DNA of 64,000 bases from Escherichia coli. GTDB lineage: Bacteria > Pseudomonadota > Gammaproteobacteria > Enterobacterales > Enterobacteriaceae. The notes under the pieces were generated by a model. The model did not search any database and was not told the origin of the DNA. It saw only the letters and a program-made list of their open reading frames with translations. Of the stretch, positions 94 to 7,322 are shown piece by piece. The translations under genes were made by a program, and so were the position numbers. The DNA is taken from assembly GCF_041248615.1 (NCBI RefSeq), contig NZ_CP158426.1; one strand, written 5' to 3'. Positions within the stretch are counted from its first letter, which is position 1. Each line of letters begins with the position of its first letter.

Positions 94-116
94 CAAAAAA
101 GCCCGCAGCGCGGGCT
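94..116 (-). terminator. Intrinsic terminator immediately after the 179-aa ORF stop
   Basis: GC stem agcccgc/gcgggct (100-116) with plus-strand A6 run at 94-99 (T-run on minus strand); overlaps stop codon 116-118. Confidence 0.55.
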
Positions 117-655
117 TACCAAAACTTGTACCACGGGGATTTATCCTTCAATGGACAATCCTTCCATCGTGTGGCCAACCATTCATATTCTTTAAAATAT
201 GTGTTTATGTTTTCTTTTTCTCTAATGGCTTGTATAAGAGGTAGCGCAATCTGATAGTTATTTACAACGGAGCTGTAAAATACTTCCTTAATCATGGTCT
301 CATCATAAGTTTTCCGCTTCACGCTCACAGCCATGCGTTCGTAGAAACCTAGACAGTAAATTATTTCTCTCTTCTCTGTCTTTTCTTCATCCGTAAGATC
401 AGCCTGCCCATTGCTTGGATACATATAAGAGCGGAATGATTTGTTCGATTCGTGAATGCGGCGCATAGTAGATAGGCCTTTCTTATAATCTACATCAAAC
501 CTGCTTTCACCAAGGAATACTGAAGTGTGTACTTTTCTCGCTGTATTTACATTATAAATAATAGTAGCGATAGCTATGAACAAGCCAAGCGAAACCGCGA
601 CTGCACTTACGATTTGAGCCACAGCCATGGCAAATTGCATTTCTTCACTTAACAC
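116..655 (-). CDS. Hypothetical membrane-anchored protein (prophage moron); no family assignable
   Basis: 179-aa ORF from GTG at 655 with GGAGA 7 nt upstream (alternative ATG at 640); single N-terminal hydrophobic helix AMAVAQIVSAVAVSLGLFIAIATIIY then charged soluble domain; AT-rich; own terminator. Confidence 0.55.
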   Translation of the reverse strand: MLSEEMQFAMAVAQIVSAVAVSLGLFIAIATIIYNVNTARKVHTSVFLGESRFDVDYKKGLSTMRRIHESNKSFRSYMYPSNGQADLTDEEKTEKREIIYCLGFYERMAVSVKRKTYDETMIKEVFYSSVVNNYQIALPLIQAIREKENINTYFKEYEWLATRWKDCPLKDKSPWYKFW

Positions 656-676
656 AAACTGTCTCCAGACATGAAA

Positions 677-696
677 ACGGGGCCTAATGGCCCCGT
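677..696 (-). promoter_or_regulatory. Perfect palindromic hairpin in the leader of the 179-aa gene (possible attenuator or stabilising stem)
   Basis: acggggcc-taat-ggccccgt, followed on minus strand by TTTC; preceded by a 10-codon mini-ORF with strong SD. Confidence 0.3.
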
Positions 697-840
697 CATT
701 AAACTATCCGAATGTTAAACGCCTTCGTACTCGTCAAATTTTCTCATGTGGGCTCCTCCTGTATCGGTGCCTAATCGCTATGGATCACCCGTGAGGTAAT
801 AGTAAGCTATTCACCTGCAATCTGTACAGAATTATTTAAA

Positions 841-856
841 GGCACATCCCTGTGCC
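841..856 (-). terminator. Putative terminator downstream of antirepressor gene
   Basis: Hairpin ggcaca-tccc-tgtgcc 10 nt after ant stop, followed on minus strand by TTTAAATAATT. Confidence 0.4.
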
Positions 857-865
857 GCCGCCCCG

Positions 866-1576
866 TCAGAAGAACCCTGCCTTGTCGTTGATGTATTCCG
901 CGTGAGTCTGGATATCACGCAGGCATTTGCTCACACCGACGATGTAGCAAAACATGGTGGTCAGCTCCGCCGCCGCGCCCGATACGTCGTGCCCGTCGTC
1001 CTGTAACTGGTTCAGCAGATTCATCAGCAGTGAGTTCTCCGTCAGGCCGAGAACACCAGACGGAGAATGAATCAGACTGCGGTAGCCGGGCTTCAGTGGG
1101 GCGCTGTAGGTTTTGTTCTCTATCTTCATTGCCTGCATCACTGCTGATGCTGTGGCGTTGGCTACCTGGTCGGCAACCATCTTTATGCGTTCTTCCTGCG
1201 GGAGCGAGTTTTTAATGTAACTTCCGGTGCGGCGGATCTGAGGAAGAACCTCACCTGTAACCCATTTACGAAAGCGGTAGGGGATAGTGCCTGGTGTCAC
1301 CGCATCGCGGCAGCGGAGGATCAGTGTGTAGAGGCCTGACTCGGAGATGATGTTGATCTCTTTTACTCGGCTGTCAAAAATCGCACGATGTTCATGCCCT
1401 ATGTTGAACATAGACCTTTCATCATCATCCAGTTTTTCAAGTGATTGGGTGACGTTTTGGATACGCAGCGCACTACAAACGTCTTGGGCTACAAACCATG
1501 GTTGGCCATCGATAATGATGGAACGGATAGGGTTAACAGATTCAAATTTGAAGATGGCAGTTTGAGCATTAGCCAT
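866..1576 (-). CDS. Phage antirepressor, Bro-N domain family
   Basis: N-terminal FKFESVNPIRSIIIDGQPWFVAQDVCSALRI matches Bro-N/KilA-N-type antirepressor signature; ATG at 1576 with GGAGAT SD (track ORF begins at upstream in-frame GTG 1591). Confidence 0.8.
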   Translation of the reverse strand: MANAQTAIFKFESVNPIRSIIIDGQPWFVAQDVCSALRIQNVTQSLEKLDDDERSMFNIGHEHRAIFDSRVKEINIISESGLYTLILRCRDAVTPGTIPYRFRKWVTGEVLPQIRRTGSYIKNSLPQEERIKMVADQVANATASAVMQAMKIENKTYSAPLKPGYRSLIHSPSGVLGLTENSLLMNLLNQLQDDGHDVSGAAAELTTMFCYIVGVSKCLRDIQTHAEYINDKAGFF

Positions 1577-1731
1577 GGTGGTTATCTCCACTTAGTGATT
1601 TTAATCACCACCGCAACGCCAATTACTGGTGGTGAACTGGACAAGGTTGGCGTACCGGCCTAAGTGGTACCGGCGTCCTTTCGGACCCCTGCCCAGCCCA
1701 CCATAATTCGGATATAGCTGTGCTTAACGCA

Positions 1732-1755
1732 TAAAAAAACCACGTCTGGCGTGGT
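1732..1755 (-). terminator. Putative intrinsic terminator between small paralog gene and ant
   Basis: Stem accacg-tctgg-cgtggt (1739-1755) with plus-strand A7 (T7 on minus strand) at 1733-1739. Confidence 0.45.
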
Positions 1756-1891
1756 ATGCGCCACTTAGTAACTCGGGACGCCAATCCCGGCACTGGATTT
1801 TGCCAGTGCCAGATTACTATGGCACAAGAGGAGTGCGATGTAAATTTACCGCAAAGGTAAATATAAGCACTCCAGTTGGTAATTGCAAACC

Positions 1892-2149
1892 TTATCTGGT
1901 TTGTTTTCGTAATTGTTCGGCACAATAGTCGAGATGTGTTTGCAGATCCCGCATAGACATCTGTGAGCTGGTGACGTAGTTAATCAGTGCAGTCAGTTCG
2001 GCAAGTGGGCCATCGACATTAAATCCATCCTTATCGAGATCCCGGAGTAATTTCATCAAGTGCGATCCCTCCACCAGTGACCTGACGCCTCCCGGCGTGT
2101 GAATCCTTTCGGTAAATCCGTCTTCCAGTGGATAGTGATACTGCTGCAT
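1892..2149 (-). CDS. Small hypothetical protein (86 aa), paralogous to C-terminal domain of the adjacent antirepressor
   Basis: ATG at 2149 with GGAGAAG SD; shared motifs with Ant C-terminus (IH-S/T-P-G-GV, LxExSxLMxLL, DGxxVxG, AELT, RD-I/L-QTH); longest ORF extends to 2272 but lacks RBS. Confidence 0.55.
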   Translation of the reverse strand: MQQYHYPLEDGFTERIHTPGGVRSLVEGSHLMKLLRDLDKDGFNVDGPLAELTALINYVTSSQMSMRDLQTHLDYCAEQLRKQTR

Positions 2150-2344
2150 CTTATCTTCTCCATGCAATAACTGTATATTTATACAGTAGCAAATAATTTG
2201 TTTGCTATCCAGCACGTTTTGCAAATCACCTGAAAGGTAATATCTATTCGTATTTACAGTCTTTCTATCCATATGTGGTTTTTCAGGTAATAGAATAACC
2301 AGATATGCGGCGCAACGGGTGCTGCGACTATCTGGAGATTTAAC

Positions 2345-4927
2345 ATGACGGTCTCAACCGAAGTTGACCACAACGAATACACCGGTAACGGAGTTACGAC
2401 ATCGTTTCCGTATACTTTCCGCATTTTCAAAAAATCCGACCTGGTTGTTCAGGTGTCTGACCTGAACGGGAACGTAACAGAATTGGTTCTGGATACCGGT
2501 TATACAGTAACTGGAGCTGGCACTTATAGTGGCGGTTCTGTGGTTCTTCCGTCTCCGCTTGCTACTGGATGGAGAATTACGATAGATCGTGTGCTTGATG
2601 TAGTACAGGAGACAGATCTTCGCAATCAGGGAAAGTTTTTTCCCGAAGTGCATGAAGATGCCTTTGACTACCTGACGATGCTGATCCAGCAATGTTTTGG
2701 GTGGTTCAGACGTGCATTGATGAAACCATCTTTGCTTGCAAAATATTACGATGCAAAGCAAAACAGAATTTCTAACCTTGCAGATCCATCACTTGAGCAG
2801 GACGCTGTAAATAATCGCTCAATGCGTAATTATGTCGATGCTGCAATCGCCGGAGTTGTTGGTGGTTTTGGTTGGTTTATTCAGTATGGTTCTGGGGCAG
2901 TATACAGAACGTTCCAGGATAAGATGCGTGACGTTTATAATGTTAAAGATTATGGGGCGAAAGGTGACAATATTAACGATGATACGCTAGCATTTATTGC
3001 AGCAGCAAATGCTCTCGGAGAGGGCGGAAAGTTATATATTCCAACAGGAACATACAATTTAACTGGTCCAGTTAATATACCACCAGTGAATATGTGCGGC
3101 GATGGGCAGGGTGAAACAGTTATTGTGTTTGACAATACCACATCACCAAAAGACGGCTTTGTTTTCGCTGCGCCAACTAAATATGATATTGAATTTGGTT
3201 TAAGTCACCTTACAGTTAAAAGAAAAGGCGGGAATGGAGCTAATGCTATATATACCCCAAGAGGTGTCGGGCTTAACCATCTAAGACCAAAACCAACATT
3301 TAGATTTTTATCTTTCTGTTCTGAAACTGCAAATATTGATTCTGATGAATTCGCTCAGAAATACGGCTGGGAATGGTCTTTTAACTGTGGTGATAGTTGG
3401 CAGTTCACAATCGAACGCATTGATGCTGTTGGATGTTATCAGATAGCCAAAAGTTATAATGAACAGTTCCTTGATGGATTCATTCGCACCGCTCCAGAAG
3501 AGGGGATTTTATCAATGCGTGTGAGTGATATCACAACGCATAATGTTGCAAATTTTTTTGAAATTAAGCAGAAGACATATTTTACATTGCTTAATATTGA
3601 TGCCGCCAAGGCATTACGAGGCATTTACGACGCTGATGATCGTATATTTGAAACGAATCGTTATGCTTATGGTGAATGTATATGCACAAATGTTGGTATT
3701 AATGCCCAACTTGAACCAGTACGGCTGGATAACAGATTCCTGCTCATCATGAATGGTATGTTTATTCACCGCGCAGCAAAAGGTTACGATCATGGTCTGG
3801 AATGGGTTGGTCTTAAGCTTAGTCGTGCTCGCGTGTGTTCATTCCAGGGAATTGAGATCGGCACTGCCAGAGGGTATTCAGGGACTAAGAAAGGGATTGT
3901 TCTTGACGCCGGTGATGCAAATAACTTTACCAATGTAACTTTTGGTTTGCTTGATGTGTGCGCACAGATTGGCGATTCCAATTCACAGTATGGTGCCAAC
4001 TTTGCAACATGCTTTAATAATGTGAGCATTAATGCTGACACCGTATTGTTATTCGATTTGCAGCTATGCAGAAATTTCCATTGTGATGGATACGGAGCAT
4101 CTTCTGCCTACACTCTTCAGCAATTCCATAGGAACAGTGATGACACAAGCAATACTTATACATTTAGTAATGTAGGTAAACACAATCTCTACACTGACAA
4201 CTCGCTGTACCTACATAATTCTGCTTCGCTGGAGAACGGGAAGAATATACGTATTGATACACGAAACGGATTATCTGTTAGCACTCAAGCAGATACTGGT
4301 TCCGCAGGAAATAACTTCCTTATAATTCGTAGGACTGGTGTTGATATAGACAGTTTTGAGTTAAGGACTCGCAGTACAGCAGGTGCATATACATATATTA
4401 ATACACCTGAAACTCATTTTTCTGGCCTTATAAAACCAACTGTTGATAATGTTAACTCAAACGGAACATCAGCATTTCGATGGTCACAGGTATACGCTGG
4501 TACTGGCAGTATCAACACGTCGAATGAAGAGCTGAAATTGCGTATTGAGGCTGACGAGAAAACAACAGAATCAGAGCGTCTTGCTGCGCTTGAAATAAAG
4601 GAAAATATCTGGAGGTTTAAATTTAAAGATGCAGTAAAGATCAAGAGTGATGGCGCTCGGATTCATTTCGGTGTTGGTGCACAAACTGTAGGTAATATTC
4701 TCAGAAAATACGGTCTTGACCCTAATAACTATGCGTTCTGGTGTTATGATGAATGGGATGATATTTATGCTCCAGAAGTATTGATTAGGAGTGTTAAAAA
4801 CAATGAAACAGGAGAGTGGTACGACGAGGAATATTACACAGGAAGGCAGATTATTATTAAACCTGCTGGCTATCAGTATGGTATCAGATACGAGGAACTT
4901 CTGATGTTTATTCTTATGTTTATTTAA
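2345..4927 (+). CDS. Phage tailspike: conserved N-terminal particle-binding domain, right-handed beta-helix (pectate-lyase-like) depolymerase domain, C-terminal peptidase-S74-type intramolecular chaperone domain
   Basis: 860 aa; ATG 2345 with GGAGA SD; N-terminus TGNGVTTSFPYTFRIFKKSDLVV typical of podoviral tailspike anchors; VKDYGAKGDNINDDTLAFIAAANA beta-helix entry motif; C-terminal S726-NEELK ... EIKENIWRF chaperone-like region. Confidence 0.85.
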   Translation: MTVSTEVDHNEYTGNGVTTSFPYTFRIFKKSDLVVQVSDLNGNVTELVLDTGYTVTGAGTYSGGSVVLPSPLATGWRITIDRVLDVVQETDLRNQGKFFPEVHEDAFDYLTMLIQQCFGWFRRALMKPSLLAKYYDAKQNRISNLADPSLEQDAVNNRSMRNYVDAAIAGVVGGFGWFIQYGSGAVYRTFQDKMRDVYNVKDYGAKGDNINDDTLAFIAAANALGEGGKLYIPTGTYNLTGPVNIPPVNMCGDGQGETVIVFDNTTSPKDGFVFAAPTKYDIEFGLSHLTVKRKGGNGANAIYTPRGVGLNHLRPKPTFRFLSFCSETANIDSDEFAQKYGWEWSFNCGDSWQFTIERIDAVGCYQIAKSYNEQFLDGFIRTAPEEGILSMRVSDITTHNVANFFEIKQKTYFTLLNIDAAKALRGIYDADDRIFETNRYAYGECICTNVGINAQLEPVRLDNRFLLIMNGMFIHRAAKGYDHGLEWVGLKLSRARVCSFQGIEIGTARGYSGTKKGIVLDAGDANNFTNVTFGLLDVCAQIGDSNSQYGANFATCFNNVSINADTVLLFDLQLCRNFHCDGYGASSAYTLQQFHRNSDDTSNTYTFSNVGKHNLYTDNSLYLHNSASLENGKNIRIDTRNGLSVSTQADTGSAGNNFLIIRRTGVDIDSFELRTRSTAGAYTYINTPETHFSGLIKPTVDNVNSNGTSAFRWSQVYAGTGSINTSNEELKLRIEADEKTTESERLAALEIKENIWRFKFKDAVKIKSDGARIHFGVGAQTVGNILRKYGLDPNNYAFWCYDEWDDIYAPEVLIRSVKNNETGEWYDEEYYTGRQIIIKPAGYQYGIRYEELLMFILMFI

Positions 4928-4930
4928 AAT

Positions 4931-4950
4931 ATAGCGCAGGGATGCGCTAT
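4931..4950 (+). terminator. Putative terminator after tailspike gene
   Basis: Hairpin atagcgca-ggga-tgcgctat 4 nt after stop; T-rich tail is weak. Confidence 0.4.
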
Positions 4951-5343
4951 TCAACTATTTTATAAAATTAATAACTATTCATGCGATATAATGTGGCCTC
5001 TTTTATCTTTGCAGAATTAAAAACTATAGAAAATATTTTGTATTATTATAAATGCTTCTGGATCATATTAATCAGTTTGCCATCTATTAGAACTTTGATT
5101 ATTGATGCATCAATTATTTAACATAGTGGTTGTGCGCAACTCCACTAACGATTGAATATAGATTGTTATTTTTGTTTACACTGTCACACAAGAACATCCT
5201 TACCTGTCAATCAACATTATTATTTTTTGATTCCATGATGTTGATTTGTGATGTAAAAAAATACATATTAAACCATATATGGATTGTAATTCGTGGTTAC
5301 AATTCTTGTTGTTTTTTTATGGTGAGATAAAAAAGGTGTTTTA

Positions 5344-5745
5344 ATGTCATTTCAATTAACAGGAGAGTCAATAAATCAATGGCTTAGCCTTGGTTCTCTA
5401 GCAGCGGTGATAGCAGGAGTGCCTCCAGAAGTAGCTCTTGGGTCTTTGTCAGGAGCGGTAATTTTTGTTACCTCTGCTGTAGAGTATCCTGTTCGTCGTC
5501 GTGTACTCTTGTCGATACTCAGCTTTCTTTGTGGTCTTCTCTTTTACAAACCAACTGCATCAATTCTTATAGGCATAGCCAGTCTAATTCCTACCATTAC
5601 TCAGGACTCTTTCGAGAAAGGGATTGTTTTCTCTGCTGGCGCATTTGTGTCAGCAATAGTCGCAGTGCGAATTGGCATCTGGCTCTATCACCATTCCGAT
5701 AATCCACGCGAGTTAATTCCTGGGAGAAAAGACGATGGTAACTAA
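5344..5745 (+). CDS. Holin-like membrane protein (3-4 predicted TM helices)
   Basis: 133 aa, several hydrophobic helices, charged C-terminus; first gene of lysis cassette upstream of endolysin. Confidence 0.5.
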   Translation: MSFQLTGESINQWLSLGSLAAVIAGVPPEVALGSLSGAVIFVTSAVEYPVRRRVLLSILSFLCGLLFYKPTASILIGIASLIPTITQDSFEKGIVFSAGAFVSAIVAVRIGIWLYHHSDNPRELIPGRKDDGN

Positions 5746-6043
5746 TGAGCTTGTTTTGCTTATCACCAATGCAGTTATTTGTACTGGCATAGCAATTCGC
5801 GTTGTCACATTCCGGCGTAACGGCTCTCAACACCGAAGGTTGGGAGGCTGGCTTGCTTATTTCCTGATTGTTGCTGCAGCTAGTATTCCTGTTCGTGTCG
5901 TCTATGCAATCTGGTTACGTACGCCAATGGCTGTGGATTTATCTGAGGTCATTATCAACGCTGTCATGCTTGCAGCGGTTATTAAAACGCGCGGTAACGT
6001 CGTGCAGATTTTTAAAATAACGAGGTCTAAACATGGAGATTAA
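5735..6043 (+). CDS. Holin/antiholin-like membrane protein
   Basis: 102 aa, three hydrophobic segments and basic C-terminal tail [19 protein letters not shown]; GGGAGA SD; overlaps the previous and next genes. Confidence 0.5.
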
Positions 6044-6662
6044 ACAATTCCAGCGAGCTGCTGGTATTAGCGAGGCGCTGGCCGCACGCTGGTTCTCGCA
6101 TATAACTTCTGCGATGAAAGAGTTTGGTATCAGCAAAACCGAAGATCAGGCAATGTTTATTGCTCAGGTCGGGCATGAGTCTGGTGGTTTCACCAGGTTG
6201 CAGGAGAATTTCAACTACAGTGTCAGCGGTCTAGCTAACTTCGTTCGGGCTGGGCGTCTCACTCAGGGGCAGGCTAATGCACTTGGTCGCCGTGCTGGTG
6301 AACCACCATTGCCACTTGAGCGCCAGCGCGCGATCGCAAATCTGGTATACAGCAAACGCATGGGTAACAATGCTCCCGGCGATGGCTGGAATTACCGTGG
6401 GCGCGGGCTTATCCAGATTACCGGTTTGAATAACTATCGTGACTGCGGAAACGGCCTAAAAGTGGACCTGCTGGAGAATCCTGAGCTGTTGACGCAGGGC
6501 GAATACGCGGCTCGTAGCGCGGCGTGGTTCTTCTCCAGCAAAGGCTGCATGAAGTATACCGGCGATATTGCACGTGTAACTTTGATTATCAATGGTGGCA
6601 GGAACGGCATCGACGACCGGAGAGCGCGGTACATCACTGCCAGTAAGGTGCTGGCGGTATGA
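6033..6662 (+). CDS. Endolysin, glycoside hydrolase family 19 (chitinase-like lysozyme)
   Basis: 209 aa; motifs [10 protein letters not shown] and [16 protein letters not shown] resemble GH19 phage endolysins; lies between holin-like genes and Rz. Confidence 0.75.
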
Positions 6663-7141
6663 TCTGGGCATTCGTAAAAGCATACTGGAAACAGTTGCTT
6701 ATCGTGGCGGTGCTTGCTGTTCTGGTCATATCAGGAGTTGTTGCCTGGAATGTACACGGTAGCCGTCAGTACGACGCCGGGTATGCACAGGCGAAGGAAG
6801 ACCGCAAAGCTGAAGATGAGAGAGTTCGTCAGCACTACGAACAGGAGAAAGCGACCAATGAACGTGAAGCTCAGCAGAGGATCGACCAGGCGCGCAATGA
6901 TGCTCTTGATGCTGCCGCTCGCGCTGGCCGGTTGCAGCAACAACTCTTTGCCATCCGTGAGCAGCTCAGGCAGTATAACGCCATTGTCGGCGCTGGGACA
7001 TCAGCCGCAGACACCGGAGTTTTGCTTGCCGACGTGCTCAGCAAATCTCTCGAGAGAAACAGACAACTGGCAGAGTATGCTGACCGGGCAGCCGAAGCCG
7101 GAAGAGTCTGCGAAAAACAGTACGACACTCTGACCAGATAG
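6659..7141 (+). CDS. Rz-like inner-membrane spanin (i-spanin)
   Basis: 160 aa; N-terminal TM helix then Gln/Arg/Ala-rich predicted coiled coil; start ATG overlaps endolysin stop (ATGA). Confidence 0.7.
6858..7133 (+). CDS. Rz1-like outer-membrane lipoprotein spanin (o-spanin), embedded in +1 frame of Rz
   Basis: ATG 6858 with AGGAGAAAG SD; lipoprotein signal [26 protein letters not shown] (lipobox LAGC); fully contained within Rz. Confidence 0.6.
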   Translation: MNVKLSRGSTRRAMMLLMLPLALAGCSNNSLPSVSSSGSITPLSALGHQPQTPEFCLPTCSANLSRETDNWQSMLTGQPKPEESAKNSTTL

Positions 7142-7251
7142 CATGGCATTTTTCATGGTACTGATTTCCGGTGACGGTATATAAAACGGTACTAGAAAAA
7201 TGAAGTTTTGGAAAAATGTTATCACTCAATTTGTTATGATTGTCGTAAATA

Positions 7252-7266
7252 ATTGAGTGGGAATGA
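7252..7266 (+). other. guaA: Candidate attR core / terminal codons of guaA (IEWE-stop)
   Basis: att gag tgg gaa tga reads I-E-W-E-stop, which I recall as the GuaA C-terminus; upstream frame is broken by stops, so only the last codons are host-like here. Confidence 0.4.
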
Positions 7267-7296
7267 TTTTGATCCCTGCACTATGAATGAACAAAA

Positions 7297-7322
7297 CCCT
7301 CTGTTACTACAGAGGGTTTTTT
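7297..7322. terminator. Bidirectional intrinsic terminator between prophage end/guaA remnant and yfgI
   Basis: ccctctgt-tact-acagaggg stem with A4 upstream and T6 downstream. Confidence 0.6.

Follow-up and report, generated by a model that had tools for sequence, protein, structure and literature searches.

The closest described counterparts of the locus analysed here are the lysis regions of the phages phiV10 (NC_007804: p27, p28, p29, p30 and p30a) and epsilon15 (AY150271: gp23, holin, endolysin, Rz and Rz1), in whose records all five genes of the cassette are already annotated; the cassette is a known system. In both phages the tailspike gene comes first, followed by serotype-conversion genes and then by the cassette, which immediately precedes the attachment site (attP) and an integrase gene. 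Together with TL-2011b and SPN1S, both phages belong to the published 'Bcep176' family of embedded two-component spanins (Kongari et al. 2018, PMC6139136). The endolysin of SPN1S, which is used in applied work, is reported to have about 30 times the activity of hen lysozyme on EDTA-treated cells (Lim 2012, as cited in PMC5025407), and for a further GH19 enzyme, PaGH19Lys of P. aeruginosa, the active-site residues are defined and an N-acetylmuramidase activity without chitinase activity was demonstrated (PMC12329726). Regarding the membrane proteins of such cassettes, the papers on Burkholderia P2-like phages (KS5, KS14, KL3 and AP3) named the products of a PF16931-PF05449 gene pair putative antiholin and putative holin, as a prediction only (PMC3091744, PMC5247547).

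Results

A five-gene lysis cassette at the right end of an epsilon15-type prophage

The window, a stretch of 64,000 nucleotides of E. coli DNA (contig NZ_CP158426.1), contains at positions 5344-7141 an intact lysis cassette, with which an epsilon15/phiV10-type (Uetakevirus) prophage ends on its right side, beside the host gene yfgI (Table 1). It consists of five intact plus-strand genes, four in series and one embedded. The open reading frames described in the original prediction were all found in place, although four lysis genes had been counted there, whereas the four serial genes and the embedded Rz1 add up to five. Overlaps at the gene junctions comprise 11 nt (ATGGTAACTAA), 11 nt (ATGGAGATTAA) and 4 nt (ATGA). 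All five ORFs matched a PHROGs lysis family with E values from 4e-34 to 4e-90, which places them far beyond chance, and four of the five proteins additionally matched a Pfam family above the gathering score, while no NCBIfam model matched any of the five. The domain searches called for in the original prediction thus assigned every protein of the cassette to lysis families (Pfam, PHROGs).

Table 1 Features of the lysis cassette and its surroundings (positions in the window).
Feature	Position	Strand	Family or remark
Tailspike gene	2345-4927		phrog_1171, E 7.5e-212
133-aa inner-membrane protein, PF16931 Phage_holin_8	5344-5745	+	First cassette gene; homologue of epsilon15 gp23 and phiV10 p27
102-aa three-transmembrane protein, PF05449 Phage_holin_3_7 (formerly DUF754)	5735-6043	+	'holin' in the phiV10 and epsilon15 records
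209-aa soluble GH19-family endolysin (muramidase type)	6033-6662	+	PF00182, phrog_181
160-aa i-spanin (Rz equivalent), predicted N-terminal TM anchor and charged helical periplasmic domain	6659-7141	+	PF10721, phrog_312
91-aa o-spanin precursor (Rz1 equivalent), predicted outer-membrane lipoprotein	6858-7133	+	phrog_11621, lipobox
Prophage end, attR region (context, no lysis gene)	7142-7320	.	Near-identity to phiV10 and epsilon15 3' of Rz stops at ~7268
Hairpin and T-run	7293-7320		Near-copy in both phiV10 and epsilon15
Host gene yfgI	7361-7900	minus	Directly beyond the prophage end; then yfgH and onward

The prophage assignment rests on identity, gene order and location. For the cassette DNA, a nucleotide search gave identities of 100% to E. 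coli NZ_LT599825, of 92-93% to the phages TL-2011b, ZX5 and BP9, of 89.7% to phiV10 and of 81.6% to epsilon15, and the 90-93% DNA identity to TL-2011b, ZX5 and phiV10 spans about 91% of the query. The five genes, their order, their overlaps and the embedded +1 Rz1 are all shared with phiV10 and with epsilon15, with protein identities (in gene order) of 90, 81, 96, 93 and 93% to the former and of 90, 80, 83, 89 and 85% to the latter; the first protein has 133 aa here and 134 aa in both phages. As in phiV10 and epsilon15, the tailspike gene lies on one side of the cassette and the attachment site on the other. In contrast to the phage records, the integrated prophage is followed by host DNA (yfgI, yfgH) in place of attP and the integrase gene, and a 416-nt AT-rich spacer takes the place of the serotype-conversion genes. 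The left part of the prophage lies beyond the window. Scanning the surroundings of the cassette for promoters and terminators yielded counts no better than those in shuffled sequence, and an Rfam scan gave nothing significant. Furthermore, the cassette is common in E. coli: among 5426 complete genomes, 1993 matched it in whole or in part, and in 383 the match covered at least 80% of it.

A soluble GH19 endolysin

The 209-aa protein matched PF00182 (E 3.5e-8, 34 bits, cut-off 25.5) and phrog_181 'endolysin' (E 3.8e-90). Its closest solved relative is the SPN1S endolysin (PDB 4OK7; E 1.1e-114, 82% identity over 208 residues), with which it has the GH19 fold, the catalytic Glu pair and the Q-x-T and I-N-G motifs in common. 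PaGH19Lys (PDB 9EOI) shares the GH19 fold but is only a distant relative (E 1.3e-31), and its residues H50, E51, E60, Q127, T129, I187 and N188 align with H48, E49, E58, Q128, T130 and I186-N187 of the 209-aa protein. The PF00182 and 4OK7 matches together with the catalytic glutamates bear out the assignment as a GH19 enzyme of neither the lambda nor the T4 type, which had initially been made from motifs. Considering the 82% identity to an endolysin active in vitro, the 209-aa protein is probably muralytic. No hydrophobic segment was detected in it, as the mean Kyte-Doolittle value stayed below 1.3 in every 19-residue window. An endolysin without a hydrophobic N-terminus has no signal or SAR domain, which rules out a SAR-endolysin/pinholin model and indicates that a hole-forming holin would be needed for its release.

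An o-spanin gene nested in the i-spanin gene

The i-spanin matched PF10721 DUF2514 (E 2.1e-44) and phrog_312 'Rz-like spanin' (E 2.7e-60) and is 89-93% identical to the Rz proteins of epsilon15 and phiV10. It has one strong hydrophobic segment near the N-terminus (max KD19 2.61), is highly charged over the rest of its length and contains a single Cys at position 151. The o-spanin matched phrog_11621 'Rz-like spanin' (E 8.9e-40), and its gene is read in the +1 frame of Rz ((6858-6659) mod 3 = 1) and terminates 8 nt ahead of the stop codon of Rz; the complete nesting and the lipobox LAGC noted at the outset are both confirmed. The gene occupies 0.41-0.98 of the Rz length, a site typical for embedded spanins (PMC6139136). 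The lipobox comprises residues 23-26, with Ser (no Asp) at +2, and is preceded by a positively charged N-region (K4, R7, R11, R12). The mature o-spanin would have 66 aa, of which 41% are Pro, Ser or Thr, and besides C26, the predicted lipidation site, it carries C56 and C60, which together with C151 of Rz provide cysteines for candidate intermolecular disulfides.

Read mechanically, the +1 frame holds a longer ORF that begins with a TTG at 6714 and encodes 139 aa; the ATG at 6858 is conserved across relatives and is the start annotated in phiV10 and epsilon15. It is preceded at a distance of 10 nt by GGAG, a Shine-Dalgarno sequence that we consider merely adequate and not excellent as originally described. 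Conserved counterparts of the o-spanin ORF, with 82-93% aa identity, are present in phiV10, epsilon15 and a Klebsiella phage. When Rz is compared with that of epsilon15 and of the Klebsiella phage, identity at third codon positions is about 0.71 outside the overlap but 0.83-0.89 within it, which indicates a dual-coding constraint. In the RefSeq genome of identical sequence, the nested o-spanin gene was missed by automatic annotation, and such omissions are a known weakness of gene callers (PMC6139136). With respect to the 'Bcep176' members epsilon15, phiV10, TL-2011b and SPN1S, the embedded architecture is shared and the spanins are 85-93% identical to those described here; the published list does not contain this prophage copy, and nothing else of note is different.

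Two holin-like membrane proteins upstream of the endolysin

The 102-aa protein matched PF05449 (E 2.2e-26, 92.1 bits, cut-off 25.4) and phrog_217 'holin' (E 4.3e-34). Hydrophobic segments cover residues 1-27, 35-63 and 63-85, and an AF2 model of moderate confidence (pLDDT 72) places helices at 4-25, 34-61, 69-84 and 89-97. Applying the positive-inside rule, the basic loop at 26-35 and the basic C-terminal tail suggest an N-out/C-in topology. The gene overlaps the 133-aa gene at its start and the endolysin gene at its end (11 nt each), so that the structural characteristics of a holin, namely three hydrophobic helices, a charged tail and a gene overlapping that of the endolysin, are found together. 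Judged by these characteristics, the 102-aa protein is most likely the hole-forming holin.

The 133-aa protein matched PF16931 over residues 6-120 (E 2.1e-10, 41.2 bits, cut-off 26.4) and phrog_198 'holin' (E 1.6e-38), and is 90% identical to its counterparts in phiV10 and epsilon15. These are lysis families, whereas a match to a non-lysis family would have spoken against the original prediction. The AF2 model, again of moderate confidence (pLDDT 67), shows helices at 7-24, 28-44, 50-79 and 92-119; an RRR loop is present at residues 51-53 and the C-terminal tail is charged, so that holin-like features (three to four helices and a charged tail) occur in this protein as well. A dual start of the lambda S107 type is absent from both membrane proteins, whose N-termini (MSFQLTG... 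and MVTNELV...) contain no second start within the first few codons. Homology to the P2 antiholin LysA was not detected when a 90-sequence PF16931 alignment was compared with LysA by hhalign (probability 0.3%), and the two are alike only in being encoded by a separate gene and in having about four transmembrane helices. For the 133-aa protein, a role as antiholin or co-holin partner of the 102-aa protein is most likely. Overall, the matches to PF16931/phrog_198 and PF05449/phrog_217 agree with the initial description of two holin-like membrane proteins ahead of the endolysin, and support the caution with which it offered either a holin/antiholin pair or a holin plus an accessory membrane protein.

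The PF16931-PF05449 gene pair is a conserved module

Sampling genomic contexts protein by protein, we surveyed 15 cassette lineages of podoviruses, lambdoid and P2-like phages and found a PF16931 gene immediately followed by a PF05449 gene in 14 of them. The pair is encoded on one strand, abutting or overlapping, in the cassette described here, in phiV10, epsilon15, Tyrion, a Klebsiella phage, Hafnia phage yong2 and Burkholderia KS5, and furthermore in three lineages designated L007, L011 and L012 and in those from Laribacter, Gilliamella, Chromobacterium, Yersinia and Stenotrophomonas. In most lineages the two genes overlap by 4-14 nt, and in a few they abut. The endolysins encoded beside the pair are of at least five types (GH19, M15_4, PG_binding_1 with the muramidase domain PF11860, VanY-like, or unassigned). 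The exception is the lineage L009/L010, in which PF16931 is kept next to a partner without a match to PF05449 or any other Pfam family, together with a GH24 endolysin. PF16931 and PF05449 are not paralogues (hhalign probability 0.8%). The PF16931-PF05449 pair is a conserved module, a context of the two families that is newly found here, and this adjacency is the sole support for the putative antiholin function of the 133-aa protein.

A full-text literature search by Pfam names and accessions returned genome descriptions only and no experiments on PF16931 or PF05449 proteins; the labels 'holin' and 'antiholin' that the two families carry in Pfam, PHROGs, GenBank records and papers are predictions. 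Two experimental leads were discarded as guides, namely the tested holin of the Burkholderia P2-like phage ST79, which belongs to a different family (LydA-type, PF16083), and a N. gonorrhoeae holin described in a paper mentioning epsilon15, which is an unrelated protein of 49 aa.

Discussion

Taken together, we consider it highly probable that the locus is an epsilon15-type cassette which brings about canonical three-step Gram-negative phage lysis, with the 102-aa protein as the likely holin and the 133-aa protein as its likely antiholin or timing partner. In the first step, the 102-aa PF05449 protein would accumulate in the inner membrane and form large holes at a programmed time, with the 133-aa PF16931 protein, made from the overlapping upstream gene, acting as a dedicated membrane partner and most likely as antiholin or timing regulator. 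The soluble GH19 muramidase, having neither signal nor SAR domain, would then leave the cytoplasm through these holes and cleave the peptidoglycan. Finally, the i-spanin in the inner membrane and the lipoprotein o-spanin in the outer membrane would constitute a periplasm-spanning complex, which is expected to disrupt the outer membrane once the wall is lost.

Since both membrane protein families bear 'holin' names, their roles could be reversed or shared. A reversal, with the 133-aa PF16931 protein as hole-forming holin and the 102-aa PF05449 protein as antiholin or regulator, has in our view a real but minor chance of being correct, and several observations point in this direction: PF16931 and phrog_198 carry the labels 'putative phage holin' and 'holin', the 133-aa protein is itself holin-like with its three to four membrane helices and charged C-terminal tail, its gene comes first in the cassette, the PF16931 gene of P2-like phages directly follows gpX at the site where P2 has its holin gene Y, and L009/L010 keeps PF16931 beside a partner that lacks a PF05449 match. 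In addition, in the alp cassette of P. aeruginosa the first gene encodes a putative holin and the second the antiholin (PMC7969949). However, it is the 102-aa protein that has the textbook class-I holin layout (three TM helices, a predicted N-out/C-in orientation and a basic tail) and whose gene directly adjoins the endolysin gene, and the curated phage records and the Burkholderia papers all give the name 'holin' to the PF05449 gene, although these are predictions too. In this context, the self-lysis proteins AlpB and AlpC of P. aeruginosa may possibly belong to the same module as PF16931 and PF05449; no Pseudomonas aeruginosa entries appeared among the matches listed in the profile searches with the two families.

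An obligate two-component holin, in which both proteins are needed for the hole and neither is inhibitory, seems improbable to us, even though widely differing phage types strictly retain the two genes together while their endolysins are interchangeable, the overlaps of 4-14 nt (abutting genes in a few lineages) suggest coupled, stoichiometric translation, and the lack of paralogy between PF16931 and PF05449 argues against a holin accompanied by a duplicated inhibitory copy of itself. Yet separately encoded antiholins are likewise stably linked to their holins, and systems with two holin-like proteins elsewhere vary in the roles of their members, as in P1 (LydA/LydB/LydC/LydD) and the mycobacteriophage pairs. 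If both proteins were indeed required, the two genes would have travelled together through podoviruses, lambdoid phages and P2-like phages of Beta- and Gammaproteobacteria, combining freely with at least five endolysin types, and their products would represent a holin architecture distinct from single-protein holins and from the holin/antiholin pairs of lambda, P2, T4 and P1. We consider it extremely improbable that the 133-aa protein is a membrane 'moron' without a function in lysis (e.g. in superinfection exclusion or envelope modification) beside the serotype-conversion slot. While its gene lies just downstream of O-antigen-modifying genes in phiV10, epsilon15, Tyrion and L007, and several records say merely 'membrane protein' or 'hypothetical', the conversion genes are on the opposite strand, whereas the 133-aa gene runs in the same direction as the holin gene, which it overlaps; moreover, P2-like phages, which have no conversion module at this site, carry the pairing in their late operon, flanked by gpX and the endolysin, and the protein matches lysis families in both Pfam and PHROGs. 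A PF05449 holin with a PF16931 antiholin or timing partner thus remains our preferred assignment. The pair is widespread, so that the question of which protein is the holin concerns a large set of phages and prophages, including the relatives of SPN1S.

[quoted passage not shown] They differ in their endolysin, which combines PG_binding_1 with a PF11860 muramidase domain, and in their myovirus (P2-like) background; additionally, the Rz of KS5 has no DUF2514 match, unlike the Rz found here. The lysis genes of P2 are Y (holin), K, lysA (membrane antiholin), lysB and lysC, and those of lambda are S105/S107, R, Rz and Rz1. To these two systems the cassette stands in a relation of functional analogy only, namely a class-I three-TM holin, a separate timing regulator, a soluble endolysin and a two-component spanin, and homology of P2 Y to PF05449 was not detected (hhalign probability 0.1%). 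In comparison with P2, the putative regulator gene precedes the holin gene here, whereas in P2 it comes after the endolysin gene. The endolysin is a GH19 enzyme here and not a transglycosylase or of the P2 K type, and the dual-start motif of lambda has no counterpart in our cassette, whereas the embedding of Rz1 in the +1 frame is the same in lambda as in the prophage described here.

Gene content of the lysis cassette

Four plus-strand ORFs lie in series at 5344-7141, and a fifth is nested within the last (see table); this 91-aa ORF uses the +1 frame relative to the 160-aa ORF and stops 8 nt short of the latter's stop codon. The original prediction of overlapping or abutting lysis genes therefore stands (overlaps between successive genes of 11, 11 and 4 nt), with the count corrected from four to five. 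The domain searches proposed with that prediction returned lysis-family matches in both Pfam and PHROGs, with agreeing assignments for the cassette proteins, and they recover the two consecutive holin-like membrane proteins and the GH19-type endolysin recognized from the sequence; no NCBIfam model matched any of the five proteins. Gene identities and sequence features are direct observations.

Features of the lysis cassette and its flanks in the window
Feature	Position	Strand	Family match
Three genes: DUF4760 protein, BRO-N domain protein, small hypothetical	116-2149	-	
Tailspike, 860 aa	2345-4927		phrog_1171 E 7.5e-212; PF12708
AT-rich spacer, 416 nt	4928-5343		
133-aa membrane protein	5344-5745	+	PF16931 Phage_holin_8 E 2e-10; phrog_198 'holin' E 2e-38
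102-aa membrane protein	5735-6043	+	PF05449 Phage_holin_3_7 E 2e-26; phrog_217 'holin' E 4e-34
209-aa endolysin	6033-6662	+	PF00182 GH19 34 bits (cut-off 25.5); phrog_181 'endolysin' E 4e-90
160-aa i-spanin	6659-7141	+	DUF2514 E 2e-44; phrog_312 'Rz-like spanin' E 3e-60
91-aa o-spanin	6858-7133	+	no Pfam match; phrog_11621 'Rz-like spanin' E 9e-40
Hairpin	7293-7320		
yfgI	7361-7900	-	

Endolysin and spanins

Over its full length the 209-aa protein aligns with the SPN1S endolysin, whose crystal structure is known (PDB 4OK7; E 1e-114, 82% identity). Its H48-E49, E58, Q128, T130 and N187 match H50, E51, E60, Q127, T129 and N188 in the active site of the Pseudomonas aeruginosa GH19 endolysin PaGH19Lys, for which N-acetylmuramidase but no chitinase activity was demonstrated (PMC12329726). 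The SPN1S enzyme is credited with about 30 times the activity of hen lysozyme on EDTA-treated cells in the account of Lim 2012 in PMC5025407. Since the 209-aa protein has no hydrophobic N-terminal segment, it is a soluble cytoplasmic endolysin needing a large-hole holin; a SAR endolysin is ruled out on the same ground.

The i-spanin carries a single strong N-terminal hydrophobic segment followed by a charged remainder with one Cys (C151). As predicted, the nested ORF encodes a lipobox, with a basic N-region preceding LAGC at residues 23-26 and Ser at +2; its Shine-Dalgarno sequence, GGAG 10 nt upstream, is adequate only and not excellent as first described. The mature o-spanin has 66 aa, 41% of them Pro, Ser or Thr, and two further Cys. 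The embedded ORF is kept in phiV10, epsilon15 and a Klebsiella phage (82-93% amino acid identity), and third-codon identity of Rz to epsilon15 and the Klebsiella phage rises from ~0.71 upstream of the overlap to 0.83-0.89 inside it, which is the pattern that selection on two reading frames would be expected to produce. The o-spanin occupies 0.41-0.98 of the i-spanin length, the modal arrangement among embedded spanins (Kongari et al. 2018, PMC6139136), whose embedded 'Bcep176' family includes epsilon15, phiV10, TL-2011b and SPN1S. In the RefSeq (PGAP) annotation of E. coli NZ_LT599825, the counterpart of the i-spanin gene (L001 7460-7942, equal to window 6659-7141) contains no CDS for the embedded Rz1, an example of how gene callers tend to pass over nested genes (PMC6139136). 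In Enterobacter phage Tyrion, the 133-aa protein is retained (91% identity) next to a 501-nt Rz/Rz1 allele (4313-4813) with a divergent C-terminal two-thirds and a lipobox LGAC in the +1 frame, a combination that points to mosaic exchange inside the cassette; its o-spanin, annotated as 139 aa from a far-upstream start, is probably over-extended.

The two membrane proteins and their pairing

The 102-aa protein has three hydrophobic segments, modelled by AF2 as helices 4-25, 34-61 and 69-84 with a short amphipathic helix 89-97 (pLDDT 72), and its basic 10-residue loop and basic C-terminal tail predict an N-out/C-in topology by the positive-inside rule. Class-I holins such as lambda S105 and P2 Y share this three-helix, N-out/C-in arrangement; neither the 102-aa protein nor PF05449 showed sequence similarity to P2 Y. 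For the 133-aa protein the model gives helices 7-24, 28-44, 50-79 (kinked) and 92-119 (pLDDT 67), with an RRR loop past helix 28-44; the C-terminal tail is charged, and the number of transmembrane segments may be three or four. Comparison revealed no relationship of its family to P2 LysA or to the 102-aa family.

Distant PF16931 proteins were sampled for gene context from an exhaustive representative search plus a profile search. PF05449 follows directly on the same strand in the lambdoid-like Hafnia phage yong2, the Klebsiella phage, Tyrion, Burkholderia phage KS5, contigs L007, L011 and L012, P2-like prophages of Laribacter, Gilliamella, Chromobacterium and Stenotrophomonas, and a Yersinia prophage. 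The L011 partner, a 96-aa ORF at 3378-3668 (E 8e-12) overlapping the PF16931 gene by 4 nt, was missed by the collection's gene caller, so precomputed annotations undercount the pairing. The sole exception among the sampled contexts, L009/L010, has an 80-aa membrane protein without Pfam match as partner and a GH24 (PF00959) endolysin. Elsewhere the endolysin beside the pair is GH19, M15_4, PG_binding_1 with a PF11860 muramidase, VanY-like or without assignment; as the pair stays constant while the endolysin type differs, the two genes form a conserved module and travel together independently of it. In the Gilliamella prophage (1117-3162) the pair follows gpX as usual and is physically apart from its endolysin (Peptidase_M15_3), which sits with a DUF2570 protein upstream of gpX in the late region. 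In the bacterial chromosome L012 (3001-3695) the pair is flanked by NUDIX, PAS-GGDEF-EAL and phosphoesterase genes, with no adjoining endolysin or spanin gene, and represents either the end of a decayed prophage or a holin pair that has been domesticated.

Prophage context

The 2.1-kb cassette region is 100% identical to NZ_LT599825, 90-93% identical to the Uetakevirus phages TL-2011b, vB_EcoP_ZX5, phiv142-3 and phiV10, and 82% to Salmonella phage epsilon15; of 5426 complete E. coli genomes, 1993 match at least part of it and 383 match at least 80% of it. The prophage/host junction lies in 7142-7320: near-identity to phiV10 and epsilon15 3' of Rz ends at ~7268, and host yfgI, yfgH, yfgG, pdeF and ppx come next. 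The cassette therefore belongs to an integrated prophage and lies at its right end. The hairpin (12-bp stem and T-run) has a near-copy in the attP region of both phiV10 and epsilon15, and probably represents the att core, in overlap with the terminator of host gene yfgI.

Upstream, the spacer between tailspike gene and cassette (26-29% GC) contains no ORF with a family match and is itself unmatched in the phage collection, whereas phiV10, epsilon15, Tyrion and L007 hold opposite-strand O-antigen/LPS-modifying genes in this slot (oac, gp21/gp22, an acetylase and a sulfatase-like gene); from this difference, the serotype-conversion module seems absent or replaced. The tailspike, named 'glycosyl hydrolase family 28-related' in RefSeq, conserves the epsilon15-type N-terminal head-binding region (the phrog_1171 match), followed by a pectate-lyase-like domain and a weak, below-cut-off C-terminal match to the Peptidase_S74 intramolecular chaperone (E 1e-3). 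The three genes 5' of it, named after the NZ_LT599825 annotation, are accessory genes within the prophage late region.

Mechanism and comparison with known systems

The best-supported reading of the cassette is the canonical holin/endolysin/spanin pathway: the PF05449 protein would form holes, with the PF16931 protein as its dedicated partner and probable timing regulator, the holes would let the GH19 muramidase out, and the embedded Rz/Rz1 pair would then disrupt the outer membrane. Here we infer what the proteins do and how the two membrane proteins share the work. In Burkholderia phages KS5, KS14, KL3 and AP3 the pair was called 'putative antiholin' and 'putative holin' by position and topology (PMC3091744, PMC5247547), and we regard the same two roles in reverse as a doubtful, though realistic, alternative. 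An obligate two-component holin made of both proteins is somewhat less probable still. The literature search found no experiments on PF16931 or PF05449 family proteins, and the experimentally tested ST79 holin belongs to another family. A non-lysis function of the 133-aa protein is highly improbable: its gene overlaps the 102-aa gene and runs in the same direction, and P2-like late operons contain this pair as well, all of which contradicts such a function.

The question of which protein plays which role is general to the family and not particular to this locus. The curated records of phiV10 and epsilon15 hold exactly the same five genes (membrane protein, holin, endolysin, Rz and Rz1), followed by the attP region and then the integrase gene. 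Every feature of the original prediction is on record already, both in the annotation of the closest phages and in the spanin literature, and the copy in the window shows no departure from them.
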